16,353 nucleotides of DNA from a virus. Lineage: Duplodnaviria; Heunggongvirae; Uroviricota; Caudoviricetes. The DNA lies in the IMG/VR virus record IMGVR_UViG_2718218139_000006. One strand, 5' to 3'. A program made the position numbers and the translations under genes. Shown piece by piece: positions 941-16,353 of the stretch. Under the pieces are notes generated by a model. The model worked only from the letters and a program-made list of their open reading frames with translations, was not told the origin of the DNA and did no database searches. Numbering within the stretch: position 1 is the stretch's first letter; each line of letters starts with the position of its first letter.

Positions 941-983
941 TGAGGTGTACTGGCAATAGCGGACACTACCATTTGTTCTTTTT

Positions 984-1802
984 TTAAGCAGCCATCTGAT
1001 GATATTTTTCCCTGAAGGCTGCCGGGGAGATATTCCCCAGACGAGAGTGACGACGCTGACGATTGTAGAAAATCTCAATGTATTCCCGTATTACTGAGAT
1101 GGCTTCATCCCGGTTATTAAAACGATAGTGGCTCAGGCTCTCATTTTTCAGCGTTCCCCAGAAGCTTTCCATCGGAGCGTTGTCGTAACAGTTACCTTTA
1201 CGCGACATTGATGTTTTCAGACCAAACTGCTCCTGTATGACCCGGTAATCGTATGCGCAGTACTGTGAACCTCGATCAGAGTGGTGGATTAGCCCGGCAG
1301 GTGGGCGCTGGCTCCTGAGCGCCATAAACAGGGCTTTACCTGTCAGCTCTTTTGTCATGCGCTCTCCCATGGCGTAGCCGACAATTTCGCACGTATAAAC
1401 ATCTTTGATGCCAGCGAGGTACAACCATCCCTCCTGTGTGGCAACATACGTCAGGTCCGCCACCCAGACCTGATTTGGTGCTGTAGGAGCGAACGTCTGG
1501 TTCAGCAGATTTGGCGCAACTGGCAGATTGTGGTTCGAGTTCGTAGTCGCTCTGAACTTGCGTTTCTGCTTACAGCGTAGCCTTAGCTCCTTACGAAGAC
1601 GTGCCAGTCGGTCACGACCAACGATGATGCCATTCTCTGCCAGCTCCGTCTGGAGCCGCCGGGTTCCATATGTTTCGCGAGTGCGGATATGTGCCACCTT
1701 AATCTCCAGTTTTAGCCGCTCATCACTTTGTTTTCTGTCTGAGGGTTCATGCTGTACCCAGTTGTAATAACCGCTCCTGGATACACCAAATACCTGACAC
1801 AT
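984..1802 (-). CDS. IS3-family transposase OrfB (DDE/integrase catalytic domain), normally made as an OrfAB frameshift fusion
   Basis: 272-aa ORF with conserved IS3 OrfB motifs (WVADLTYV, HHSDRGSQY, CYDNAPMESFWGTLK). Lies in the -1 frame relative to orfA. Confidence 0.85.
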   Translation of the reverse strand: MCQVFGVSRSGYYNWVQHEPSDRKQSDERLKLEIKVAHIRTRETYGTRRLQTELAENGIIVGRDRLARLRKELRLRCKQKRKFRATTNSNHNLPVAPNLLNQTFAPTAPNQVWVADLTYVATQEGWLYLAGIKDVYTCEIVGYAMGERMTKELTGKALFMALRSQRPPAGLIHHSDRGSQYCAYDYRVIQEQFGLKTSMSRKGNCYDNAPMESFWGTLKNESLSHYRFNNRDEAISVIREYIEIFYNRQRRHSRLGNISPAAFREKYHQMAA

Positions 1803-1837
1803 CGCTTCAATGGGAAATTGTTGTCGCCATTGTTCGA

Positions 1838-2140
1838 TTAACGCGTATTTTTCAGCGACTCCTGTGCAAAATACGCTGTTGCTTTTTTTAATATATCTCG
1901 CTCAAGGCGAGCTTCATTTAACGCCTTACGCAGTTGCAGAATTTCAGATTCCAGTTCAGCCACCGTGCGGGAACCAGGAGTACCGAGCCCTTTTCTGGCG
2001 GCGGTAACCCATTGTCCTAAAGTGCCTTCAGGAAGAGATAATCGGGAAGCGCCTTCACTGATCGAAAGTTGATTTTCAAGAACCGTTCTGACAGCTTCGG
2101 CTTTGAACTCTTTAGAGTAACGTTGGGTTTTTCTGCTCAT
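1838..2140 (-). CDS. IS3-family transposase OrfA (HTH DNA-binding, leucine-zipper-like C-terminus)
   Basis: 100-aa ORF (MSRKTQRYSKEFKAEAVR...) typical of IS3-family OrfA. The slippery A-run sits near its 3' end. Start codon is about 60 bp inside the IS end. Confidence 0.85.
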   Translation of the reverse strand: MSRKTQRYSKEFKAEAVRTVLENQLSISEGASRLSLPEGTLGQWVTAARKGLGTPGSRTVAELESEILQLRKALNEARLERDILKKATAYFAQESLKNTR

Positions 2141-2207
2141 TATTAGCTCCTTCTGATGCCATTCTATTTCAGGAAGGAGTGTCCGTTAAACTCAGGCTAC
2201 CTCACTT

Positions 2208-2636: not shown

Positions 2637-2775
2637 TTGTCCTCCTCTTAGCTGCTGAGGGAGTTTGTGACCGATATATCTGACATGATATTAAGCTTAT
2701 GGCAGGTACATCTCTTGACTGGTCATAGAGATAAATTTAATGCTGAGAAATGCAGTATTGAATTTATCAATTTTT

Positions 2776-3015
2776 CTATTTCCTGCGTATGGCACGTAAC
2801 TTCTTAATGTGTTCTGCCGTTTCGATCTCTTCTGCTATCCGATCTGCATCAGCTTTATTCACAGGTTCAAAGTCATGATTAAAGCGGAACATGCTGGCGA
2901 TACATGTTCTGCCTTTTCGGATGTAGTGAACTTTGTTGTGGGTAGAACGCAGGATTTTGCAGGGAGTGCCGTGGTGATCGACGTACCAGGTGTTAGGAAA
3001 AATGATTCTGAACAT
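2776..3015 (-). CDS. Hypothetical small protein (79 aa) in the early-left operon position
   Basis: ATG ORF with a good Shine-Dalgarno (GAGGTG, 4-nt spacer before the ATG at 3015), co-oriented with xis/int. No family recognised. Confidence 0.5.
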   Translation of the reverse strand: MFRIIFPNTWYVDHHGTPCKILRSTHNKVHYIRKGRTCIASMFRFNHDFEPVNKADADRIAEEIETAEHIKKLRAIRRK

Positions 3016-3062
3016 TTTTACACCTCAATTGGACGATGTTGAAATTTGCTGCTTTGAGGCCA

Positions 3063-3281
3063 TCACAGTCCCCATTGTTTGTTCTTAAGTTCGATCTCCT
3101 CCTGGCAACTTGCACAAGTCCGACAACCCTGAACGGCCAGGCGTCTTCGTTCATCTATCGGATCGCCACACTCACAACAATGAGTGGCAGATATAGCCTG
3201 GTGGTTCAGGCGGCGCATTTTTATTGCTGTGTTGCGCTGTAATTCTTCAATTTCTGATGCTGAATCAATGATGTCTGCCAT
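3063..3281 (-). CDS. DksA/TraR-family C4 zinc-finger protein (phage TraR-like)
   Basis: 72 aa with CxxC-(17 aa)-CxxC (CECGDPIDERRRLAVQGCRTCASCQ) and size like TraR/lambda Orf73-type proteins. Same orientation as the xis/int operon. Confidence 0.65.
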   Translation of the reverse strand: MADIIDSASEIEELQRNTAIKMRRLNHQAISATHCCECGDPIDERRRLAVQGCRTCASCQEEIELKNKQWGL

Positions 3282-3330
3282 CTTTCATTAATCCCTGAAT
3301 TGTTGGTTAATACGCTTGAGGGTGAATGCG

Positions 3331-3356
3331 AATAATAAAAAAGGAGCCTGTAGCTC
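3331..3356 (-). terminator. Candidate intrinsic terminator on the minus strand
   Basis: Minus-strand hairpin GGAGC-TACAG-GCTCC followed by TTTTTTATTATT, just downstream of the 3380 stop. The stem is only 5 bp, so it is weak. Confidence 0.35.
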
Positions 3357-3379
3357 CATGATGATTTTGTTTTTCATGT

Positions 3380-3595
3380 TCACCGTTCCTTAAAGACGCC
3401 GTTTAACATGCCGATCGCCAGGCTTAAATGAGTCGGTGTGAATCCCATCAGCGTTACCGTTTCGCGGTGCTTCTTCAGTACGCTACGGCAAATGTCATCG
3501 ACGTTTTTATCCGGAAACTGCTGTCTGGCTTTTTTGATTTCATAATTAGCCTGACGGGCAATACTGCGAAGGGCGTTTTCTTGCTGAGGTGTCAT
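3380..3595 (-). CDS. Hypothetical small protein (71 aa from the ATG at 3595; an alternative upstream start at 3727 would give 115 aa)
   Basis: ORF MTPQQENALRSIARQANYEIKKARQQ... in early-left orientation, followed by the candidate terminator. Its 5' region overlaps the plus-strand Q-like ORF, so one of the two starts is probably wrong. Confidence 0.35.
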   Translation of the reverse strand: MTPQQENALRSIARQANYEIKKARQQFPDKNVDDICRSVLKKHRETVTLMGFTPTHLSLAIGMLNGVFKER

Positions 3596-4191
3596 TGAAC
3601 AAGTCCCATGTCGGCAAGCATACATACAAACGAAAGAAACCGCGCATTCTGGATGAAGTGACCGGCAGGTTAATAACGCTGGATAATCCGCCGATACCCG
3701 GTAAGCAGTCACGGGCGAAAGGCTCATCCATTGCCCTGGTCAGTCCGATCGAGTTCTCAACATCATCATGGCGCCGCGCGGTTCTGTCTCTCGAAGAACA
3801 TCAGAAAGCGTGGTTGCTGTGGAGTTACAGCGAAAGTGTTCGCTGGGAACATCAGGTCACCATAACGCAGTGGGCATGGAGCGAGTTTAAGACTCTGTTG
3901 GGTACCAGGAAAATTGCAGGTAAGACACTGGAACGTTTGAAGAAGTTGATCTGGCTGGCGGCACAGGATGTGAAGAACGAGCTGGCAGGGCGTAAGACCT
4001 ATGAATACCAGGAGTTGGCATCACTGGTGGGAGTGACATCAAAAAACTGGTCTGAGACATTTACTGAACGCTGGGTTGCAATGAAGCACATTTTTCTACA
4101 GCTTGATAGCCAAGCTTTATTGCTTTTAACGAAAACACGTTCAAAACAAAAGACCACATTTTCACAGCAAGATATTGCAAAACTGGATTAA
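3589..4191 (+). CDS. Putative late-gene regulator (Q-antiterminator-like by position), HTH-like segment near the C-terminus; start uncertain, possibly 5'-truncated
   Basis: 200-codon ORF immediately upstream of a terminator-rich leader and the lysis cassette, the canonical Q position. Contains an HTH-like stretch (YQELASLVGVTSKNWSETF). There is no in-frame ATG near the 5' end (only GTG/TTG candidates) and no recognised similarity to lambda Q. Confidence 0.35.
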   Translation: MSLNKSHVGKHTYKRKKPRILDEVTGRLITLDNPPIPGKQSRAKGSSIALVSPIEFSTSSWRRAVLSLEEHQKAWLLWSYSESVRWEHQVTITQWAWSEFKTLLGTRKIAGKTLERLKKLIWLAAQDVKNELAGRKTYEYQELASLVGVTSKNWSETFTERWVAMKHIFLQLDSQALLLLTKTRSKQKTTFSQQDIAKLD

Positions 4192-4260
4192 AAATCATAT
4201 ATTTTATGTAAATCTGATATTTTGCCAATGTTGTACGCACTGGCCGTAATCCAAATTCAA

Positions 4261-4296
4261 GCCCGAGGTTTAAAGCCTTGGGCTTTTCTGTTTCTG
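4261..4296 (+). terminator. Candidate intrinsic terminator / structured late-leader element
   Basis: Hairpin GCCCGAGG-tttaaag-CCTTGGGC (8 bp with one G-U pair) followed by a U-rich tract (ttttctgtttctg). Confidence 0.45.
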
Positions 4297-4372
4297 GGCG
4301 GTGAGTATCCTTCCAACGTACCCCAGCCAGGGTGTCTTCAGCTGTTGAGTTGATATTGCTTAACCCTCTGTT

Positions 4373-4398
4373 GCCAGCTACATGCTGGCTTTTTTATT
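4373..4398 (+). terminator. Candidate tR'-like intrinsic terminator between the Q-like gene and the lysis genes
   Basis: Hairpin GCCAGC-tacat-GCTGGC followed by TTTTTTATT. Confidence 0.55.
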
Positions 4399-4512
4399 CC
4401 AGGCTTGCGGGGAGCATCAACTCCGTGCTTTGTCGTTAAATTACCCCGTGAGCCTGATTTCTGACATTTAACGTCCCGGCCTTTTGTCGGCGGCGAAACA
4501 TTGGCTATTCAT

Positions 4513-4818
4513 ATGCACGAAAAAGAGAGCCTTGCCGGAGCGTTCTGGCTCGTTTTGCTGATCATCGCAGGTTGGGGCGGTCTGGTCCGCTACCTGATAG
4601 ATGTGAAGCAGAGTAAAGCAACGTGGAGCTGGATAAATGCTTTGGCTCAGATAGTGGTGTCGGGATTCACCGGTGTTATTGGTGGCCTGATCAGTATCGA
4701 AAGTGGATTCAGTATTTACATGATTCTCGCGACAGCGGGGATTAGTGGTGCGATGGGTTCGGTTGCACTGACATACTTCTGGGAACGACTGACAGGGGTG
4801 AAAAATGCAAAATCTTAA
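4513..4818 (+). CDS. Holin (not lambda S-like), about 101 aa from ATG 4513; the ORF track begins at TTG 4501
   Basis: Small protein with several hydrophobic transmembrane-like segments and a charged C-terminus, directly upstream of and overlapping the endolysin gene. Confidence 0.7.
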   Translation: MHEKESLAGAFWLVLLIIAGWGGLVRYLIDVKQSKATWSWINALAQIVVSGFTGVIGGLISIESGFSIYMILATAGISGAMGSVALTYFWERLTGVKNAKS

Positions 4819-5281
4819 TCCTCAGCGTAAAGCTTTCCTCGATATGGTGGCATGGTCAGAAGGAACGGATAACGGACGGCAGAAAACCAGAAATCATGGT
4901 TATGACGTCATTGTAGGCGGAGAGCTATTTACTGATTACTCCGATCACCCTCGCAAACTTGTCACGCTAAACCCCAAACTCAAATCAACAGCAGCCGGAC
5001 GTTATCAGCTTCTTTCACGCTGGTGGGATGCTTACCGTAAGCAGCTTGGCCTGAAAGACTTCTCCCCCAAAAGCCAGGACGCAGTGGCATTGCAGCAGAT
5101 TAAAGAACGTGGCGCTTTACCGATGATTGATCGCGGTGATATTCGTCAGGCAATTGACCGTTGCAGCAATATCTGGGCTTCACTGCCGGGCGCTGGTTAT
5201 GGTCAGTTCGAGCATAAGGCTGACAGCCTGATTGCAAAATTCAAAGAAGCTGGCGGAACGGTCAGAGAGATTGAGGTATGA
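4805..5281 (+). CDS. R: Endolysin R (lytic transglycosylase), lambda R homolog
   Basis: 158 aa; from residue 8 (QRKAFLDM...) onward matches lambda R as I recall it, while the first 7 residues differ. Confidence 0.9.
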
Positions 5282-5739
5282 GCAGAGTAACCGCGATTAT
5301 CTCCGCTCTGGTTATTTGCATCATCGTCTGCCTGTCTTGGGCTGTTAATCATTACCGTGATAACGCCATTACCTACAAGGCCCAGCGCGACAAAAATGCC
5401 AGAGAACTGAAGCTGGCGAACGCGGCAATTACTGACATGCAGATGCGTCAGCGTGATGTTGCTGCGCTCGATGCAAAATACACGAAGGAGTTAGCTGATG
5501 CTAAAGCTGAAAATGATGCTCTGCGTGATGATGTTGCCGCTGGTCGTCGTCGGTTGCACATCAAAGCAGTCTGTCAGTCAGTGCGTGAAGCCACCACCGC
5601 CTCCGGCGTGGATAATGCAGCCTCCCCCCGACTGGCAGACACCGCTGAACGGGATTATTTCACCCTCAGAGAGAGGCTGATCACTATGCAAAAACAACTG
5701 GAAGGAACCCAGAAGTATATTAATGAGCAGTGCAGATAG
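5278..5739 (+). CDS. Rz: Spanin inner-membrane subunit Rz
   Basis: 153 aa, [58 protein letters not shown]..., matching lambda Rz. ATGA start/stop overlap with R. Confidence 0.9.
5498..5680 (+). CDS. Rz1: Spanin outer-membrane lipoprotein subunit Rz1, embedded in the +1 frame of Rz
   Basis: 60 aa, [24 protein letters not shown]... with a lipobox (VVGC) and a proline-rich stretch, matching lambda Rz1. Confidence 0.85.
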
Positions 5740-5740
5740 A

Positions 5741-5762
5741 GTTGCCCATATCGATGGGCAAC
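5741..5762. terminator. Candidate bidirectional terminator hairpin between convergent Rz and bor
   Basis: Perfect 9-bp stem GTTGCCCAT-atcg-ATGGGCAAC lying exactly between the Rz stop (5739) and the bor stop (5771). Confidence 0.5.
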
Positions 5763-5770
5763 TCATGCAA

Positions 5771-6064
5771 TTATTGTGAGCAATACACACGCGCTTCCAG
5801 CGGAGTATAAATGCCTAAAGTAATAAAACCGAGCAATCCATTTACGAATGTTTGCTGGGTTTCTGTTTTAACAACATTTTCTGCGCCGCCACAAATTTTG
5901 GCTGCATCGACAGTTTTCTTCTGCCCAATTCCAGAGACGAAGAAATGGTGGGTGATGGTTTCCTTTGGTGTTACTGCTGCCGGTTTGTTTTGAACAGTAA
6001 ACGTCTGTTGGGCACATCCTGTAATAAGCAGGGCCAGCGCAGTAGCGAGTAGCATTTTTTTCAT
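5771..6064 (-). CDS. bor: Bor lipoprotein (serum-resistance-associated lysogenic conversion protein)
   Basis: 97 aa, MKKMLLATALALLITGCAQQ... with signal peptide and lipobox (LITGC); matches lambda Bor. Confidence 0.9.
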   Translation of the reverse strand: MKKMLLATALALLITGCAQQTFTVQNKPAAVTPKETITHHFFVSGIGQKKTVDAAKICGGAENVVKTETQQTFVNGLLGFITLGIYTPLEARVYCSQ

Positions 6065-6208
6065 GGTGTTATTCCCGATGCTTTTTAAAGTTCGCAGAAT
6101 CGTATGTGTAGAAAATTAAACAAACCCTAAACAAACCCTAAACAATGAGTTGAAATCTCATATTGTTAATATTTATTAATGTATGTCAGATGCGAAGGAT
6201 CGTCACTG

Positions 6209-6274
6209 TATTCCCGGATTAACTATGTCCGCAGCCCTGACAGGGAAACTCCTCTGCGGGAGTGTCCGGGAATA
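6209..6274. repeat. Nested dyad-symmetry element in the bor-downstream intergenic region
   Basis: Perfect 10-bp inverted repeat TATTCCCGGA (6209-6218) / TCCGGGAATA (6265-6274) enclosing an inner inverted repeat CCGCAG (6229-6234) / CTGCGG (6254-6259) and a central CCCTG-a-CAGGG. Confidence 0.6.
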
Positions 6275-6366
6275 ATTAATAACGATGCACACAGGGTTTA
6301 GCGCGTACACGTATTGCATTATGCCAACGCCCCGGTGCTGACACGGAAGAAACCGGACGTTATGAT

Positions 6367-6900
6367 TTAGCGTGGAAAGATTTGTGTAGTGTTCTGAATG
6401 CTCTCAGTAAATAGTAATGAATTATCAAAGGCATAGTAATATCTTTTATGTTCGTGGATATTTGTAACCCATCGGAAAACTCCTGCTTTAGCAAGATTTT
6501 CCCTGTATTGCTGAAATGTGATTTCTCTTGATTTCAACCTATCATAGGACGTTTCTATAAGATGCGTATTTCTTGAGAATTTAACATTTACAACCTTTTT
6601 AAGTCCTTTTATTAACACAGTGTTATCGTTTTCTAACACAATGTGAATATTATCTGTGGCTAGATAGTAAATATAATGTGAGACATTGTGACGTTTTAGT
6701 TCAGAATAAAACAATTCACAGTTTAAATCTTTTCGCACTTGATCGAATATTTCTTTAAAAATGGCAACCTGAGCCATTGGTAAAACCTTCCATGTGATAC
6801 GAGGGCGCGTAGTTTGCATTATCGTTTTTATTGTTTCAATCTGGTCTGACCTCTTTGTGTTTTGTTGATGATTTATGTCAAATATTAGGAATGTTTTCAA
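6367..6900 (-). CDS. Conserved lambdoid late-region hypothetical protein (at the position of the lambda ORF downstream of bor)
   Basis: 177-aa ORF co-oriented with bor. Its position relative to Rz/bor/cos matches an unnamed lambda ORF. Confidence 0.55.
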
Positions 6901-7062
6901 TTAATAGTATTGGTTGCGTAACAAAGTGCGGTCCTGCTGGCATTCTGGAGGGAAATACAACCGACAGATGTATGTAAGGCCAACGTGCTCAAATCTTCAT
7001 ACAGAAAGATTTGAAGTAATATTTTAACCGCTAGATGAAGAGCAAGCGCATGGAGCGACAAA

Positions 7063-7269
7063 ATGAATAAAGAACAATCTGCTGATGATCCCTCCGTGGA
7101 TCTGATTCGTGTAAAAAATATGCTTAATAGCACCATTTCTATGAGTTACCCTGATGTTGTAATTGCATGTATAGAACATAAGGTGTCTCTGGAAGCATTC
7201 AGGGTAATTGAGGCAGCGTTGGTGAAGCACGATAATAATATGAAGGATTATTCCCTGGTGGTTGACTGA
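7063..7269 (+). CDS. Small conserved lambdoid hypothetical protein (68 aa)
   Basis: ATG ORF at the position of a small lambda right-end ORF. Confidence 0.45.
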
Positions 7270-7433
7270 TCACCATAACTGCTAATCATTCAAACTACTT
7301 AACCTGTGACAGAGCCAACACGCAGTCTGTCACTGTCAGGAAAGTGGTAAAACTGCAACTCAATTACTGCAATGCCCTCGTAATTAAGTGAATTTACAAT
7401 ATCGTCCTGTTCGGAGGGAAGAACGCGGGATGT

Positions 7434-7628
7434 TCATTCTTCATCACTTTTAATTGATGTATATGCTCTCTTTTCTGACGTTAGCCTCCGACGGCAGGCT
7501 TCAATGACCCAGGCTGAGAAATTTCCGGACCCTTTTTGATCAAGAGCGATGTTAATTTGTTCAATCATTTGGTTAGGAAAGCGGATGTTGCGGGTTGTTG
7601 TTCTGCGGGTTCTGTTCTTCGTTGACAT
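7434..7628 (-). CDS. Small basic protein, YlcI/DUF3950-like, possible ribbon-helix-helix fold
   Basis: 64 aa, MSTKNRTRRTTTRNIRFPNQMIEQINIALDQKGSGNFSAWVIEACRRRL...; Arg-rich N-terminus followed by a beta-alpha-alpha-like pattern. Resembles the small protein found next to cos/nohD in DLP12-type prophages (from memory). Confidence 0.5.
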   Translation of the reverse strand: MSTKNRTRRTTTRNIRFPNQMIEQINIALDQKGSGNFSAWVIEACRRRLTSEKRAYTSIKSDEE

Positions 7629-7827
7629 GAGGTTGCCCCGTATTCAGTGTCGCTGATTTGTATTGTCTGAAGTTGTTTTTACGTTAAGTTGATGCGGATC
7701 AATTAATACGATACCTGCGTCATAATTGATTATTTGACGTGGTTTGATGGCGTAGATGCACGTTGTGACATGTAGATGATAATTATTATCATTTTGCGGG
7801 TCCTTTCCGGCGATCCGACAGGTTACG

Positions 7828-7839
7828 GGGCGGCGACCT
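7828..7839. other. cosN: the 12-nt lambda cohesive-end sequence GGGCGGCGACCT (terminase nicking site)
   Basis: Exact 12-mer, preceded by lambda right-end sequence (...TCCGACAGGTTACG) and followed by lambda left-end sequence (CGCGGGTTTTCGCTATTTATGAAAATTTTCCGG). Confidence 0.9.
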
Positions 7840-7875
7840 CGCGGGTTTTCGCTATTTATGAAAATTTTCCGGTTT

Positions 7876-7993
7876 AAGGTGTTTCCGTTCTTCTTCGTCG
7901 TAACTTAATGTTTTTATTTAAAATACCCCCTAAAAAGAAAGGAAACGACAGGTGCTGAAAGCGAGCTTTTTGGCCTCTGTCGTTTCCTTTCTC
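7876..7993 (+). promoter_or_regulatory. cosB: terminase small-subunit binding sites R3, R2, R1 with an intervening AT-rich IHF-type site (I1)
   Basis: Three copies of the CGTTTCC core: R3 about 7880-7895, R2 inverted about 7937-7952, R1 about 7975-7993, with an AT-rich segment at 7898-7927. Lies between cosN and nu1 as in lambda. Confidence 0.8.
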
Positions 7994-8016
7994 TGTTTTT
8001 GTCCGTGGAATGAACA

Positions 8017-8536
8017 ATGGAAGTCAACAAAAAGCAGCTGGCTGACATTTTCGGTTCGAGTATCCGTACCATTCAGAACTGGCAGGAACAGGGAATGCCC
8101 GTTCTGCGAGGCGGTGGCAAGGGTAATGAGGTGCTTTATGACTCTGCCGCCGTCATAAAATGGTATGCCGAAAGGGATGCTGAAATTGAGAACGAAAAGC
8201 TGCGCCGGGAGGTTGAAGAACTGCGGCAGGCCAGCGAGACAGATCTCCAGCCAGGGACTATTGAGTACGAACGCCATCGACTTACGCGTGCGCAGGCCGA
8301 CGCACAGGAGCTGAAAAATGCCAGAGACTCCGCTGAAGTGGTGGAAACCGCATTCTGTACTTTCGTGCTGTCGCGGATCGCAGGTGAAATTGCCAGTATT
8401 CTCGACGGGATCCCCCTGTCGGTGCAGCGGCGTTTTCCGGAACTGGAAAACCGACATGTTGATTTCCTGAAACGGGATATCATCAAAGCCATGAACAAAG
8501 CAGCCGCGCTGGATGAACTGATACCGGGGTTGCTGA

Positions 8537-8562
<26 letters not shown>
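8017..8562 (+). CDS. nu1: Terminase small subunit Nu1
   Basis: 181 aa, MEVNKKQLADIFGSSIRTIQNWQEQGMPVLRGGGKGNEVLYD..., matching lambda Nu1 (N-terminal winged HTH). Confidence 0.95.
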
Positions 8563-12056
<3,494 letters not shown>

Positions 12057-12060
12057 CGTC

Positions 12061-12636
12061 ATGTCAGAGCAGAAAAAGACCTGGGCGGCTGAAGACCAGC
12101 TTCGCGGGAGCTGGATGGCAGGCCTGAAGTCCGGCTGGAGTGAGTGGGAAGAGAGCGCCACGGACTGTATGTTGCAGGTAAAAAGTGCAGCCACGCAGAC
12201 CTTTGATGGTATTGCACAGAATATGGCGGCGATGCTGACCGGCAGTGAACAGAACTGGCGTAGCTTCACCCGTTCCGTGCTGTCCATGATGACAGAAATT
12301 CTGCTTAAGCAGGCAATGGTGGGGATTGTCGGGAGTATCGGCAGCGCCATTGGCGGGGCTGTTGGTGGCGGCGCATCCGCGTCAGGCGGTATGGCTTACA
12401 GCCGTGTGTCGACTTTCTCCGGGGATTATCTCCGCGTAACTGACAACAAGGGGAAAACGCACGACGTGCTGACCGGAAGTGATGACGGTCGCCACAGCAA
12501 CACGTCTCTGGCGTGGGGAGCTGGCGTGCAGTTTAACCCGACCGAATCCGTGGCCATTGATATTGCTTATGAAGGCTCCGGCAGTGGCGACTGGCGCACT
12601 GACGGTTTCATCGTGGGTGTCGGTTATAAGTTCTGA
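12061..12636 (+). pseudogene. Chimeric ORF: internal C-terminal segment of tail tape-measure H fused in frame to the C-terminal about 80 residues of outer-membrane protein Lom
   Basis: First 110 residues (MSEQKKTWAAEDQLRG...GGAVGGGASASGG) match the C-terminal region of lambda gpH; the remainder (...SLAWGAGVQFNPTESVAIDIAYEGSGSGDWRTDGFIVGVGYKF) is the Lom/Ail-family C-terminus. Junction near 12388-12393. Confidence 0.8.
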
Positions 12637-12663
12637 TTAGCCAGGTAACACAGTGTTATGACA

Positions 12664-12689
12664 GCCCGCCGGTTCAGGCGGGCTTTTTT
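12664..12689 (+). terminator. Intrinsic terminator downstream of the lom remnant
   Basis: 7-bp GC-rich stem GCCCGCC-ggttca-GGCGGGC followed by TTTTTT. Confidence 0.7.
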
Positions 12690-12700
12690 GTGGGGTGAAT

Positions 12701-15700
12701 ATGGCAGTAAAGATTTCAGGTGTACTGAAAGACGGCACAGGAAAACCGGTAGAGAACTGCACCATTCAACTGAAAGCCAGACGGACCAGCAGCACGGTGG
12801 TGGTGAACACGGTGGCCTCTGAAAATCCGGATGAAGCCGGTCGTTACAGCATGGACGTTGAGTACGGTCAGTACAGCGTCATTCTGTTGGTGGAAGGATT
12901 CCCGCCGTCACATGCCGGGACCATCACCGTGTATGAAGACTCACAACCGGGTACGCTGAATGATTTTCTTGGTGCCATGACGGAGGATGATGCCCGTCCG
13001 GAGGCACTGCGCCGTTTTGAGCTGATGGTGGAAGAGGTGGCGCGTAACGCGTCCGCGGTGGCACAAAACACGGCAGCCGCGAAGAAGTCAGCCGGCGATG
13101 CCAGCACATCTGCCAGTGAGGCGGCAACCCATGCGACTGATGCTGCAGGCTCAGCACGCGCAGCCAGCACGTCAGCCGGACAGGCCGCGTCGTCGGCTCA
13201 GTCAGCGTCTTCCAGCGCAGGAACGGCATCAACAAAGGCCACTGAAGCGGAAAAAAGTGCTGCCGCTGCAGAGTCCTCAAAAAGCGCGGCGGCCACCAGT
13301 GCCGGTGCGGCGAAAACGTCAGAAACGAATGCCGCAGCGTCACAACAATCAGCAGCCACTTCTGCATCCACCGCGACCACGAAAGCGTCAGAAGCTGCCA
13401 CCTCAGCCAGGGATGCGGCGGCCTCAAAAGAGGCAGCGAAATCATCAGAAACGAACGCATCCTCGAGCGCCAGTAGCGCAGCTTCCTCGGCAACGGCGGC
13501 AGGAAATTCCGCGAAGGCGGCAAAAACGTCCGAGACGAACGCTAAGTCTTCTGAGACGGCAGCGGAACAGAGTGCCTCCGCAGCAGCAGACTCAAAAACA
13601 GCGGCTGCATCATCTGCCAGCGCCGCGTCAACAAGTGCCGGGCAGGCCTCAGCCAGTGCCACCGCTGCCGGAAAGTCGGCAGAAAGTGCCGCATCGTCTG
13701 CTTCAACAGCCACAACGAAGGCTGGCGAAGCCACTGAACAGGCCAGCGCAGCAGCGAGTTCTGCTTCCGCAGCGAAGACATCCGAAACGAACGCGAAAGC
13801 GTCGGAAACCAGCGCAGAATCCTCAAAAACGGCTGCCGCATCGTCAGCCAGTTCGGCGGCGTCATCGGCATCATCTGCGTCTGCTTCAAAAGATGAGGCG
13901 ACCAGACAAGCGTCAGCAGCGAAGAGCAGCGCCACGACGGCATCCACGAAGGCGACAGAGGCAGCTGGCAGTGCGACGGCGGCAGCTCAGAGCAAAAGTA
14001 CGGCGGAATCCGCGGCAACGCGCGCCGAGACAGCAGCTAAACGGGCAGAGGATATTGCATCCGCCGTGGCGCTTGAGGATGCGAGCACGACGAAAAAGGG
14101 GATAGTACAGCTCAGCAGTGCGACCAACAGCACTTCCGAGTCACAGGCGGCAACGCCAAAAGCCGTTAAGGCCGCGTATGACCTGGCTAACGGGAAATAC
14201 ACCGCACAGGATGCAACGACAGCACAGAAAGGGATAATCCAGCTAAGCAGCGCGACCAACAGCACATCTGAAACGCTTGCCGCGACACCAAAGGCAGTAA
14301 AAACAGCCTATGACAATGCTGAGAAACGTCTGCAGAAAGATCAGAACGGTGCGGATATCCCTGGCAAAGACACCTTTACGAAAAATATTGGTGCCTGCCG
14401 TGCCTTCGGTGGGTCAGTAAGCACAATAACAGGAAACTGGACGACTGCACAGTTTATCGAGTGGCTGGATTCTCAGGGAGCATTTAACCATCCCTACTGG
14501 ATGTGCAAGGGTTCCTGGTCTTATGGCAATAATAAAATCATTACTGATACTGACTGCGGTAATATTCATCTCGCCGGAGCTGTCATTGAAGTAATGGGGA
14601 TAAAGTCAGCGATGACGATCCGCATTACCACACCGACCACCTCCACTGGTGGTGGAACAACTAACGCCCAGTTTACCTATATTAATCACGGAACAGATTA
14701 TTCACCTGGCTGGCGAAGGGACTATAACTCCAGAAATAAGCCAACGGCATCAGAGATCGGGGCGTTACCGTCAGGTGGAACAGCAGTATCATCAGTTAAT
14801 CTGGCTTCAAAAGGTCGGGTAACCGCGCTGACAGACAATACGCAGGGGGCAACAGGTCTTGAGTTATACGAGGTGTATAACAACGGATATCCAACAGCGT
14901 ATGGAAATATCATTCACCTGAAAGGGATGACAGCCGTTGGCGAAGGTGAGTTACTCATCGGCTGGAGTGGTACAAGCGGTGCTCATGCTCCGGCATTTAT
15001 TCGTTCACGACGGGATACGACCGACGCAAACTGGTCGCCGTGGGCGCAGCTTTACACCTCGGCTCATCCTCCTGCAGAGTTTTATCCAGTCGGTGCACCA
15101 ATCCCGTGGCCATCAGATACCGTTCCGTCTGGTTATGCCCTGATGCAGGGGCAGACTTTTGACAAATCTGCCTACCCGAAACTTGCAGCGGCTTATCCGT
15201 CAGGCGTGATCCCTGATATGCGTGGCTGGACGATTAAGGGCAAACCTGCCAGTGGTCGGGCCGTATTGTCTCAGGAACAGGACGGCATTAAATCGCATAC
15301 CCACAGCGCCAGCGCATCCAGTACGGATTTGGGGACGAAAACCACATCGTCGTTTGATTACGGCACTAAATCCACGAATAACACTGGTGCGCATACCCAT
15401 AGTTTAAGTGGCAGCACGAATGCAGCTGGTAATCACAGCCATAGAGATGGCCGTCGATTTAACCCCAGTGTTTTTAAAGATACTTATCAATATGGTTATA
15501 CAAGCTCAGGTCAAAATACCTGGGGTGTACAAGGCTCAGTAGGTATGTCTACGGGGTGGTTAGCTAATACCAGTACAGATGGTAATCATAGCCACTCACT
15601 GTCCGGCACAGCAGCATCTGCAGGTGCACACGCGCATACTGTCGGTATTGGTGCTCATACGCACTCCGTTGCGATTGGTTCACATGGACACACCATCACC

Positions 15701-15772
15701 GTTAACGCTGCTGGTAACGCGGAAAACACCGTCAAAAACATCGCATTTAACTATATTGTGAGGCTTGCATAA
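12701..15772 (+). CDS. stf: Side tail fibre protein Stf (about 1023 aa from ATG 12701), apparently full length
   Basis: N-terminus [17 protein letters not shown]...; long Ala/Ser/Thr-rich repetitive shaft; two copies of the tail-fibre repeat (G-I-[VI][11 protein letters not shown]...ATPKAVK); His-rich C-terminal tip with repeated HxH motifs ([46 protein letters not shown]), ending ...[11 protein letters not shown] as in lambda Stf / T4 gp37-type fibres. Confidence 0.9.
13080..14060 (+). repeat. Low-complexity GC-rich coding repeat region inside stf (Ala/Ser/Thr-rich shaft)
   Basis: Reiterated motifs such as AKTSETNA, SSASxASTxAxxA; this region generates long artefactual ORFs in the other five frames. 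Confidence 0.8.
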
Positions 15773-16353
15773 TGGCATTCAGAATGAGTGAACAACCACG
15801 GACCATAAAAATTTATAATCTGCTGGCCGGAACTAATGAATTTATTGGTGAAGGTGACGCATATATTCCGCCTCATACAGGTCTGCCAGCAAACAGTACC
15901 GATATTGCACCACCAGATATTCCTGCTGGCTTTGTGGCTGTTTTCAACAGTGATGAGGCATCGTGGCATCTCGTTGAAGACCATCGGGGTAAAACGGTTT
16001 ATGACGTAGCGTCAGGGGACGCGTTATTTATTTCTGAACTCGGTCCGTTACCGGAAAATGTTACCTGGTTATCGCCGGAAGGGGAGTTTCAGAAGTGGAA
16101 CGGCACAGCCTGGGTGAAAGATGCAGAAGCAGAAAAACTGTTCCGGATCCGGGAGGCGGAAGAAACAAAAAACAGCCTGATGCAGGTAGCCAGTGAGCAT
16201 ATTGCGCCACTTCAGGATGCTGTAGATCTGGAGATCGCAACGGAGGAAGAAAACTCGTTGCTGGAAGCCTGGAAGAAGTATCGGGTGTTGCTGAACCGTG
16301 TTGATACATCAACTGCACCTGATATTGAGTGGCCTGTAATACCAGAAGTTTAA
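15772..16353 (+). CDS. tfa: Tail fibre assembly protein Tfa (chaperone)
   Basis: 193 aa, [79 protein letters not shown]..., matching lambda Tfa. TAATG overlap with the stf stop. Confidence 0.9.

Follow-up and report, generated by a model that had tools for sequence, protein, structure and literature searches.

An orphan stf–tfa pair in a tail-less prophage is an ordinary, well-documented and already known situation. In the Rac prophage of E. coli K-12, an intact stfR and tfaR follow a tape-measure fragment (ynaA) and lomR', with no tail genes, and stfR has been shown experimentally to recombine with lambda (PMC3945230). Published surveys found tail-fibre genes to be enriched in incomplete prophages (PMC7744054). 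In Ur-lambda, the StfN domain docks the fibre onto the tail proteins gpV and gpM, not J, and the lambda homologue of the shaft was modelled as a coiled coil (PMC12617516). The architecture of the phage T4 tip, including its seven HxH motifs, has also been described (PMC12609058). Here we analysed a stretch of DNA of 16,353 nucleotides (hereafter, the window) that has the same orphan layout as Rac.

A tail-less lambdoid remnant at icd

Located at icd, the window is a lambdoid remnant of the DLP12/PhiR26_1 kind from an E. coli lineage of Shiga-toxin type, and is 100% identical to assembly GCA_003015325.1. As the first-pass annotation had proposed, stf is a single intact reading frame of 1023 codons, with zero internal stops between the ATG at 12701 (alternative GTG at 12695) and the stop codon at 15770–15772. 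The tfa ATG lies inside the stf TAA (gca TAATGgca), i.e., the TAATG overlap noted earlier, via which tfa translation is predicted to be coupled to that of stf. Tfa is encoded directly 3' of the fibre gene and carries a Caudo_TAP domain, as expected of a fibre chaperone. The gene order lom remnant, terminator, stf, tfa matches that of lambda, PhiR26_1 and the icd prophage of O157:H7 strain F3113, which has kept its tail, apart from the loss of J in the window. We reject a sequencing or assembly artefact, because 8 assemblies encode the identical Stf protein of 1023 aa, and the five places for which details were shown all (5/5) have the same tail-less layout; the H'–'Lom scar (Table 1) is present in roughly 30 assemblies.

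Alignment to the F3113 prophage mapped two deletions. The first (8.1 kb) begins at 12038 and joins the portal gene to the tape-measure gene H, and the second (6.6 kb) joins H to lom, with the loss of M, L, K, I and J. The C-to-H and H-to-lom segments are thus absent and every tail gene is lost, as had been claimed. The second junction lies at the microhomology GGCGGTA (12385–12391), where an internal part of H (Tape_meas_lam_C, aa 16–90) is fused in frame to the 3' part of lom (Ail_Lom, aa 105–191). The insertion sequence splits the integrase gene into 1–972 and 2192–2410, so the prophage is immobilised; this insertion is missing from the F3113 prophage, from a sister clade with the same deletions (L001) and from another locus lacking J (L002). 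With int split, the early region deleted, Q truncated, the portal gene both truncated and interrupted by a nonsense codon, and the head–tail deletions, the window is a cryptic prophage.

Q lacks about 40 N-terminal codons (its alignment to the F3113 prophage starts at 3621), and a pR'-like late promoter was detected 3' of it at 4175–4203. The terminator in the gap before stf was the top-ranked terminator-like site in the scan, and no sigma-70-like promoter was found between it and 12701, so that the Q-linked pR'-like promoter would be the only plausible route for stf transcription. Given that the module lacks a tail to attach to, an intact Q and its own promoter, it would be idle in cis.

We propose that the window represents the end of the late operon in a DLP12/PhiR26_1-type lambdoid prophage that integrated at icd. 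This prophage would first have been immobilised by the loss of its early region, the truncation of Q and the insertion into int, and would then have lost its head and tail genes by two microhomology-type deletions. The survival of stf and tfa is probably due only to the second deletion having ended inside lom, just 5' of them, and to the short time available for point mutations.

Table 1 Positions of the annotated features in the window (Stf residues in brackets).
Feature	Position	Strand	Basis or detail
IS3-family insertion sequence	941..2204	-	HTH_Tnp_1 and rve on ORFs 1838-2140 and 984-1802
Antiterminator gene Q, truncated	3589..4203 (with promoter)	+	PF06323 matched from profile position 34
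Portal pseudogene	10662..12038	+	GAA>TAA nonsense at 11598-11600; cut at 12038
Deletion scar, H'-'Lom in-frame fusion ORF	12061..12636	+	Pfam and junction alignment to the F3113 prophage
Intrinsic terminator, gap between lom remnant and stf	12663..12692	+	8-bp stem, 7 G-C pairs, T run
stf, side tail fibre gene, 1023 aa, intact	12701..15772	+	ORF list, translation, Pfam and PDB matches
StfN collar domain	12701..12982 (aa 1-94)	+	PDB 9e7m, E 3.5e-51
Ala/Ser/Thr-rich shaft	13031..14170 (aa 111-490)	+	Composition, repeat spacing
Two Phage_fiber_2 repeats	14076..14314 (14076-14182, 14208-14314)	+	PF03406 twice, 132 nt apart
Central Cys-containing domain, Mu S' (gp52)/P1 Sv' type	14312..14785 (aa 538-695)	+	PDB 8ju3
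T4 gp37-type receptor-binding tip	15080..15772 (aa 794-1023)	+	PDB 2xgf, E 3e-84
Head domain of tip	15449..15574 (~aa 917-958)	+	Poorly aligned stretch vs 2xgf
tfa, tail fibre assembly chaperone, 193 aa	15772..16353	+	PF02413 (Caudo_TAP), E 1.1e-44

Domain architecture of Stf

Stf is a mosaic of a lambda StfN collar, an Ala/Ser/Thr shaft, two fibre repeats, a Mu S'-like domain and a T4 gp37-type tip. The protein thus combines pieces of lambda, Mu and T4, with exchange boundaries at domain boundaries, and exemplifies the modularity of enterobacterial fibres. Domain searches recovered each element that the first-pass annotation had read from the letters, i.e., the repetitive Ala/Ser/Thr-rich shaft, the duplicated fibre repeats, the Cys-containing central domain and the His-rich HxH tip of metal-binding type.

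At the N-terminus, Pfam (phage_tail_N, PF08400, aa 1–134, E 2.6e-72) and the PDB match to the collar both identify a side tail fibre of lambda type. Ala, Ser and Thr make up 72% of the shaft at aa 111–490, and its degenerate direct repeats are spaced by multiples of 21 nt, i.e., 7 codons or one heptad, so the shaft is probably a coiled coil. Tandem Repeats Finder reported no tandem arrays in 12600–16353, because the repeats of the shaft have diverged too far; only find_repeats picked them up. Several long ORFs in alternative frames or antisense to the shaft (13098–14105 on the plus strand; 13198–13947 and 12924–13523 on the minus strand) were rejected as genes, since GCN-rich coding produces them, as for lambda orf206b. 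The two Phage_fiber_2 matches correspond to family D4 of the repeat search and contain a motif beginning KG[IV][IV] at aa 466 and 510.

The central domain matches 8ju3 (Mu gp52) with a domain E of 3e-68 and about 80% identity, and has Cys at aa 566, 602 and 619; tblastn also matched it to P1 Sv', P7 S and P2-like H. No counterpart of aa 566–706 was found in the Stf of lambda, Rac, Qin or e14. The tip consists of a collar (PF07484, aa 798–845), a six-stranded needle with seven HxH motifs (aa 866, 898, 912, 963, 977, 986 and 995) and a head; the order of collar then seven-HxH needle is that of gp37, and iron binding is predicted. The chain doubles back between HxH motifs 3 and 4, which is where the head is located. 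The head also falls within 15404–15603, a segment without alignment to the O157 allele, and is likely the determinant of receptor specificity. The literature searched for PhiR26, mEp460, Kati and Chlobot held nothing usable on the receptor of this stf allele, and a host-range review held nothing relevant on the fibres of cryptic prophages.

By homology to solved structures, three Stf chains would dock via the StfN collar on gpV and gpM of a lambda-like tail and then form the shaft, a heptad coiled coil, followed by an intermediate domain resembling Mu S'. [quoted passage not shown]

Recency of decay and persistence of stf–tfa

The intactness of stf–tfa very probably reflects recent decay, with neutral evolution since the tail was lost. 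The window has the ancestral state at every stf–tfa site that differs from the sister clade, and therefore carries zero derived changes in the module. The sister clade accumulated six nonsynonymous and no synonymous changes in stf and one nonsynonymous change in tfa; the functional phage copies have a dN/dS of 0.12–0.13. This excess, a signal of 7 substitutions in one sister clade, indicates relaxed constraint after tail loss. The neighbouring late genes, about 5.9 kb in all, contain a single point lesion, the portal nonsense codon, and at that rate about 0.6 hits are predicted in stf–tfa, with a probability of about 0.54 of none. The module would thus be intact because too little time has passed since tail loss, and the absence of derived changes together with the one nearby lesion supports the recent decay suggested earlier.

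No systematic sparing of stf was observed. The F3113 prophage has kept its whole tail, yet its stf contains an internal stop, and stf was interrupted in 4 of 32 tail-bearing loci in an IMG/VR sample. Most lambdoid tail-less remnants in that sample were cut into stf (about 8, with 2 intact), and only the C-terminal third of stf is left in K-12 Qin. The counter-evidence comes from deletion endpoints: J was lost separately in two closely related lineages, the window and L002, through deletions whose ends lie inside lom about 30 bp from each other, and the Rac deletion also ends in lom, about 140 bp away. Such repeated endpoints could hint at protection of the downstream genes.

One explanation for these three independent endpoints is that stf–tfa is kept passively beside host-beneficial cargo, i.e., a yciGFE–katN-like stress operon and ompT, further deletions having been purged. 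The genes directly 3' of tfa (a Mn catalase, two DUF892 genes, a KGG stress protein, ybcY and ompT) fit this, as does the published enrichment of fibre genes in incomplete prophages. However, any point in the 3.7 kb of stf–tfa could serve as a deletion endpoint and leave the cargo untouched, as Qin-type remnants show, and the clustering in lom is mostly ascertainment, because the loci were found via stf and J was required to be absent, limiting the right endpoint to about 730 bp. We therefore regard such passive retention as unlikely, though it deserves more weight than the readings below.

We judge it quite improbable that selection maintains the module as a reservoir of host range, either as a recombination donor for lambdoid phages that infect the cell or already reside in it, or as a source of fibres in trans. 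Recombination of lambda with stfR/tfaR and tfaQ, which lie in defective prophages of K-12, does occur, with a frequency of about 2e-6 per phage (PMC3945230). Relative to the O157 allele, its variable cassettes (14315–15077 and 15404–15603) are surrounded by flanks of 95–96% identity; a 130-bp gene-conversion patch at 12752–12910 shows that this copy exchanged sequence with another stf; and E. coli genomes contain a median of 6 places homologous to the stf–tfa region. Supply in trans would be aided by two further Q–pR'-related regions in the closest complete genomes and by the docking of StfN on gpV/gpM, not J (PMC12617516). Usability as a donor differs from maintenance for that purpose, however. 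The sister clade gained amino-acid changes exclusively (7 nonsynonymous vs 0 synonymous), stf is truncated in many remnants, and what helps phages does not thereby help the host carrying the remnant. The donor role proposed by the first-pass annotation is plausible, and experiments have already demonstrated it for the corresponding modules of K-12 Rac and Qin; nothing shows maintenance for it.

In the trans variant, the Q of a resident phage drives read-through from the pR' of the remnant, and the fibres join the tails of that phage. A broader version, in which tail-less remnants are selected as trans-acting host-range modules (through the Q of a co-resident lambdoid or Stx phage, StfN docking and a second receptor) or as a standing library of stf-exchange cassettes, with the lom endpoints as the mark of protection, seems to us very improbable.

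Domestication of the fibre for a bacterial function, e.g., as an adhesin or a tailocin fibre, is hardly credible. Defective prophages can in general be domesticated, but the tail tube, sheath and baseplate genes are all missing here, stf has a terminator just 5' and lacks its own promoter, no trace of purifying selection follows the loss of the tail, and the module is still 97% identical to that of working phages.

We see no sign that the host retains stf–tfa on purpose. Under recent decay, the module would be evolving neutrally and would be usable incidentally as a homologous-recombination substrate for other stf genes. The locus itself matters little beyond its correct annotation, but it offers a clean, datable case of early prophage decay, in which big deletions and an insertion sequence came first and point mutations have barely begun. 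Idle stf copies in lambdoid-rich Shiga-toxin-producing strains are realistic raw material for host-range shuffling, the principle of which has already been demonstrated in K-12 (PMC3945230).

Comparison with known fibre systems

The closest relatives are the Stf–Tfa modules of PhiR26_1 (PV340555) and mEp460_ev081 (LR597641), which have the same Stf length of 1023 aa from the ATG and the same domain order. The module is 97% identical in DNA and about 97.6% in protein to those of these viable phages over its whole length, with 99.6% identity in the central domain, and the tip is 100% identical to that of phage Kati (PP925833). The first-pass annotation had named a match to lambda Stf throughout the central region as a refutation, and the region shows no such match; a novel receptor-binding variant is nevertheless rejected, because near-identical copies exist in these isolated phages and the region is about 80% identical to the solved Mu S' fibre. 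PhiR26_1 also shares the arm of ybcY, tfa fragment, hydrolase and ompT with the remnant. Both PhiR26_1 and mEp460 have J, lom and a complete tail 5' of stf, which are deleted in the window, whereas the remnant adds the stress-operon insertion 3' of tfa.

The likeness to Mu S' (gp52, 8JU3) covers aa 538–695, including the Cys motif, at about 80% identity, and P1 Sv' reaches 72%. Unlike in Mu and P1, the S'-like domain of the window is internal and outside any invertible segment, and the distal tip is of gp37 type, not that of Mu S'. An invertible fibre switch of the Mu G, P1 C or e14 P type was rejected: no Gin/Cin/Pin recombinase gene is adjacent or within 10 kb downstream, there are no long inverted repeats in 12000–16353, and only the S'-like sequence is shared.

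With the T4 gp37 tip (2XGF) the window shares the collar, the seven-HxH needle and the C-terminal strand, at 67% identity overall. Its head is divergent and about 15 residues longer, aligning too poorly to be the T4-like head that would imply the same receptor, and its N-terminus is of siphovirus type, not gp36.

Ur-lambda Stf (orf-401 + orf-314) and Tfa have the same StfN, shaft, gp37-like tip, Tfa and position after lom. Identity to the window is 73% in the N-terminal part of Stf, 71% in the tip and 95% in Tfa, but lambda has no S'-like central domain, and its OmpC specificity should not be assumed for the window because the head domain differs.

The cryptic Rac module differs in its lom junction, in having pinR 3' and in the length of StfR (1120 aa), which is without the Mu S'-like domain (aa 566–765 of the window are unmatched). 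Its Stf is otherwise 88% identical to the window over aa 1–565 and 76% over aa 766–1023, its Tfa is 95% identical, and intact stf and tfa stand behind a lom remnant in both.

Gene content and tail loss of the remnant

The window represents the remains of an E. coli lambdoid prophage with the DLP12 gene set (see table). Contig PVMG01000001.1 (assembly GCA_003015325.1) matches it at 100% identity over positions 2701-16353. Complete genomes of Shiga-toxin-type strains from cattle and humans (e.g., 2014C-3011), in which the element adjoins icd, the e14 attachment site, match the window at 99.7-99.8% identity. Its functional counterpart is the viable lambdoid phage PhiR26_1 (PV340555), which was propagated on MG1655 and has the same right arm: tfa, then ybcY, a tfa fragment, an alpha/beta hydrolase gene and ompT (9775-13613 in the phage). 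PhiR26_1 also resembles a live version of the DLP12 remnant in K-12, and is an example of ompT as phage cargo.

Features of the remnant, from left to right, in window coordinates unless a phage or prophage is named
Feature	Position	Remarks
Integrase gene		Split by IS3-family element at 941-2204
xis, then three small early genes		Right of split integrase gene
Q antiterminator gene		Right of small early genes; ~40 N-terminal codons missing
pR'-like promoter	4175-4203	Right of truncated Q gene
holin, lysozyme, Rz, then bor, ybcV, ybcW, ylcI		Right of pR'-like promoter
nohD, large terminase gene, W		Right of ylcI
Portal pseudogene		Right of W; nonsense codon at 11598-11600 and 3' truncation
H'-'Lom fusion ORF	12061-12636	191 aa; Pfam Tape_meas_lam_C and Ail_Lom
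Strong terminator	12663-12684 plus T run	Between lom remnant and stf
stf	12701-15772	Uninterrupted, 1023 codons
Long ORFs inside stf shaft	13098-14105 (+), 13198-13947 (-), 12924-13523 (-)	Other frames or strand
tfa	15772-16353	Start inside TAATG overlap with stf
IS009 match in tfa	16115-16313 (+)	Also lambda 7317-7515, Rac 8755-8953, Qin 3345-3543, PhiR26_1 9479-9677

Two deletions became apparent when the window was aligned to an icd prophage that still has its tail, that of O157:H7 strain F3113 (L003). The first (8.1 kb) extends from the portal gene (L003 16257) to the tape-measure gene H (L003 24396), and the second (6.6 kb) from H (L003 ~24719) to lom (L003 ~31348), with the microhomology GGCGGTA at window 12385-12391, leaving the in-frame fusion of H and lom pieces (H'-'Lom). 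Together they removed C, D, E, FI, FII, Z, U, V, G, T, most of H, M, L, K, I, J and the 5' half of lom. In the source genome, the region past tfa has no tail genes, in line with the first-pass annotation, which had J and the tail genes lost. The portal nonsense codon (GAA>TAA) is the sole inactivating point mutation in the retained late genes. A close relative in strain 2013C-4974 (L002) has the early-region deletion in common with the window and lost its tail by other deletions, one running from terminase to K and one from J codon 2 to lom, illustrating the same mode of decay.

Three independent tail-removing deletions (window lineage, 2013C-4974 and K-12 Rac) end within 142 bp of each other in mid-lom (window 12385-12391, L002 ~19965 and Rac 3388, i.e., L003 ~31348, ~31315 and ~31206). 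The way in which the loci were found would be expected to produce much of this clustering, and mid-lom could also be a deletion-prone spot. The 1264-bp IS3-family element has a 100% identical copy in a sister assembly (L010 14173-15436), where it breaks the Mn-catalase gene downstream of tfa, indicating recent IS activity in the lineage. An 11-bp indel (TAAACAAACCC) at 6117-6127, between bor and ybcV, distinguishes the window from the sister clade. Just past the right end of the window, a yciGFE-katN-like stress operon (a KGG protein, two DUF892 ferritin-like proteins and Mn catalase) lies between tfa and ybcY (sister-clade locus L001 20473-22686; L013 13773-15986), whereas in PhiR26_1 ybcY directly follows tfa. 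The operon looks like a cargo insertion in a prophage arm that also carries ompT.

Architecture of Stf and Tfa

The first-pass annotation described an uninterrupted stf overlapped by tfa, with a repetitive shaft, duplicated repeats, a Cys-containing centre and an HxH tip, all of which were recovered. Searches against solved structures divided Stf into domains with sharp boundaries. Residues 1-94 are the Ur-lambda N-terminal collar domain, StfN (PDB 9e7m, E 3.5e-51), whose partners in the virion are gpV and gpM (PMC12617516). The shaft is 72% Ala/Ser/Thr over aa 111-490, and its degenerate repeats recur at intervals of 21 nt or multiples thereof, a heptad period that would be compatible with the modelled coiled coil of the lambda fibre. 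Two Phage_fiber_2 repeats of 44 residues each (aa ~459-538) are followed by the Cys-containing domain (aa 538-695), which has ~80% identity to the Mu S' fibre (gp52, PDB 8ju3) and 72% to P1 Sv'. Residues 794-1023 are the T4 gp37 receptor-binding tip (PDB 2xgf, E 3e-84), including collar PF07484. The T4 needle has seven iron-coordinating HxH motifs; the Stf tip likewise has seven by sequence and would by homology bind iron. In T4 the chain doubles back between motifs 3 and 4 to form a small receptor-contacting head, and the Stf counterpart (aa ~917-958) aligns poorly and is ~15 residues longer. Two segments of stf do not align to the O157 allele, 14315-15077 (central domain) and 15404-15603 (including aa ~917-958), thus exchange boundaries match domain boundaries. 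Tfa shares 95% identity with its counterparts in lambda (Tfa) and K-12 (TfaR).

The long ORFs inside the shaft are by-products of GCN-rich Ala/Ser/Thr coding, and the annotated lambda orf206b is of the same kind. Rfam IS009 (RF02111) has full-length matches (218-228 bits, coding strand) in the 3' third of all five tfa genes examined (window, lambda tfa, tfaR, tfaQ and PhiR26_1), which may represent either an sRNA from the tfa 3' end or merely conserved coding sequence.

Recency and constraint

On three lines of evidence, the intact stf is best explained by recency rather than by selection. Both tail deletions are also present in the sister clade, which comprises L001 and four further genomes. 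At the seven differing sites in stf-tfa the window has the ancestral base in every case, based on outgroups; its copy is unchanged since tail loss. All seven sister-clade changes alter amino acids (six in stf, one in tfa; none synonymous). Functional phage copies have dN/dS of 0.12-0.13, at which ~28% of changes are expected to be nonsynonymous (calculated P ~1e-4 for 7/7), whereas the neutral expectation is ~66-75%, and thus the sister-clade pattern fits relaxed constraint. Across the remnant (L001 versus window 3414-16353), the sister clade has 13 nonsynonymous changes and one nonsense change, in H'-'Lom, versus one synonymous. The other late genes (~5.9 kb) contain one nonsense codon, so ~0.6 would be expected in the 3.65 kb of stf-tfa, with P ~0.54 for an untouched module. 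Decay has been mainly by deletions and IS hits, with point lesions rare. The remnant is a recently gutted DLP12/PhiR26_1-type prophage, as the earlier suggestion of recent decay had it, and the intact stf-tfa is a passenger that decay has yet to reach.

The derived sister-clade changes across the remnant are mostly G:C>A:T transitions. Their nonsynonymous skew is slightly above plain neutrality (~P=0.035), and the excess could be mutational bias or chance.

Nor is stf systematically spared. In the F3113 icd prophage the head and tail gene sets are complete and Q is intact, but stf (L003 31668-34583) is interrupted by a stop at codon 656, the reverse of the window. Among 79 IMG/VR loci found with the window Stf, a sample biased by this ascertainment, tail-bearing contexts had 28 intact versus 4 interrupted stf, and lambdoid tail-less contexts had 2 intact versus ~8 with a deletion running into stf (Qin type, aa 706 onward left). 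Incomplete prophages are reported to be enriched in tail-fibre genes (PMC7744054), making the window a member of a known pattern.

Expression, recombination and known fibres

No sigma-70-like site was found between the terminator and stf. By analogy with lambda, stf transcription should depend on Q-antiterminated read from pR'. The cis copy of Q is truncated; the closest complete genomes have two further Q-pR'-related regions, so activation in trans by a Q elsewhere in the genome is conceivable.

The proposal that the module donates host-range determinants by recombination is mechanistically sound: variable stf cassettes are bracketed by conserved flanks relative to the O157 allele, and the principle is already established experimentally in K-12, where lambda picks up stfR/tfaR (Rac) and tfaQ (Qin) markers at ~2e-6, mainly via Red-beta (PMC3945230). 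Within the StfN region, the window and L001 carry a 130-bp patch (12752-12910) with 16 sites unlike all other alleles; it is partly lambda-like and is a gene-conversion tract from another stf copy. Consistently, 16 of the 18 stf differences between the window and L002 fall within 160 bp of the StfN domain, with only two outside the patch. Retention of stf-tfa by selection for such a donor role, or for a trans-acting one, is very improbable.

Stf aa 566-706 had no counterpart in lambda Stf or the K-12 Rac, Qin and e14 fibres. Rac StfR matches aa 1-565 at 88% and aa 766-1023 at 76%, Qin StfQ matches aa 707-1023 at 84%, and lambda matches aa 1-404 at 73% and aa 795-1023 at 71%; the central region is thus not lambda-like throughout. 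We nevertheless rejected it as a new variant, given near-identical copies in viable phages and its frequency in E. coli genomes. The central domain is 99.6% identical in PhiR26_1 and mEp460_ev081 (97% DNA identity for the whole module) and phage Kati has an identical tip (100%); at least 80% of 12001-16353 is present in 633 of 5426 complete E. coli genomes, and the 90%-identity Stf protein cluster has 4246 members. The first-pass observation is confirmed and its interpretation was essentially right. A remnant with intact stf-tfa is ordinary and already known, as K-12 Rac has the same orphan layout of a tape-measure fragment, a lom fragment and intact stfR and tfaR.
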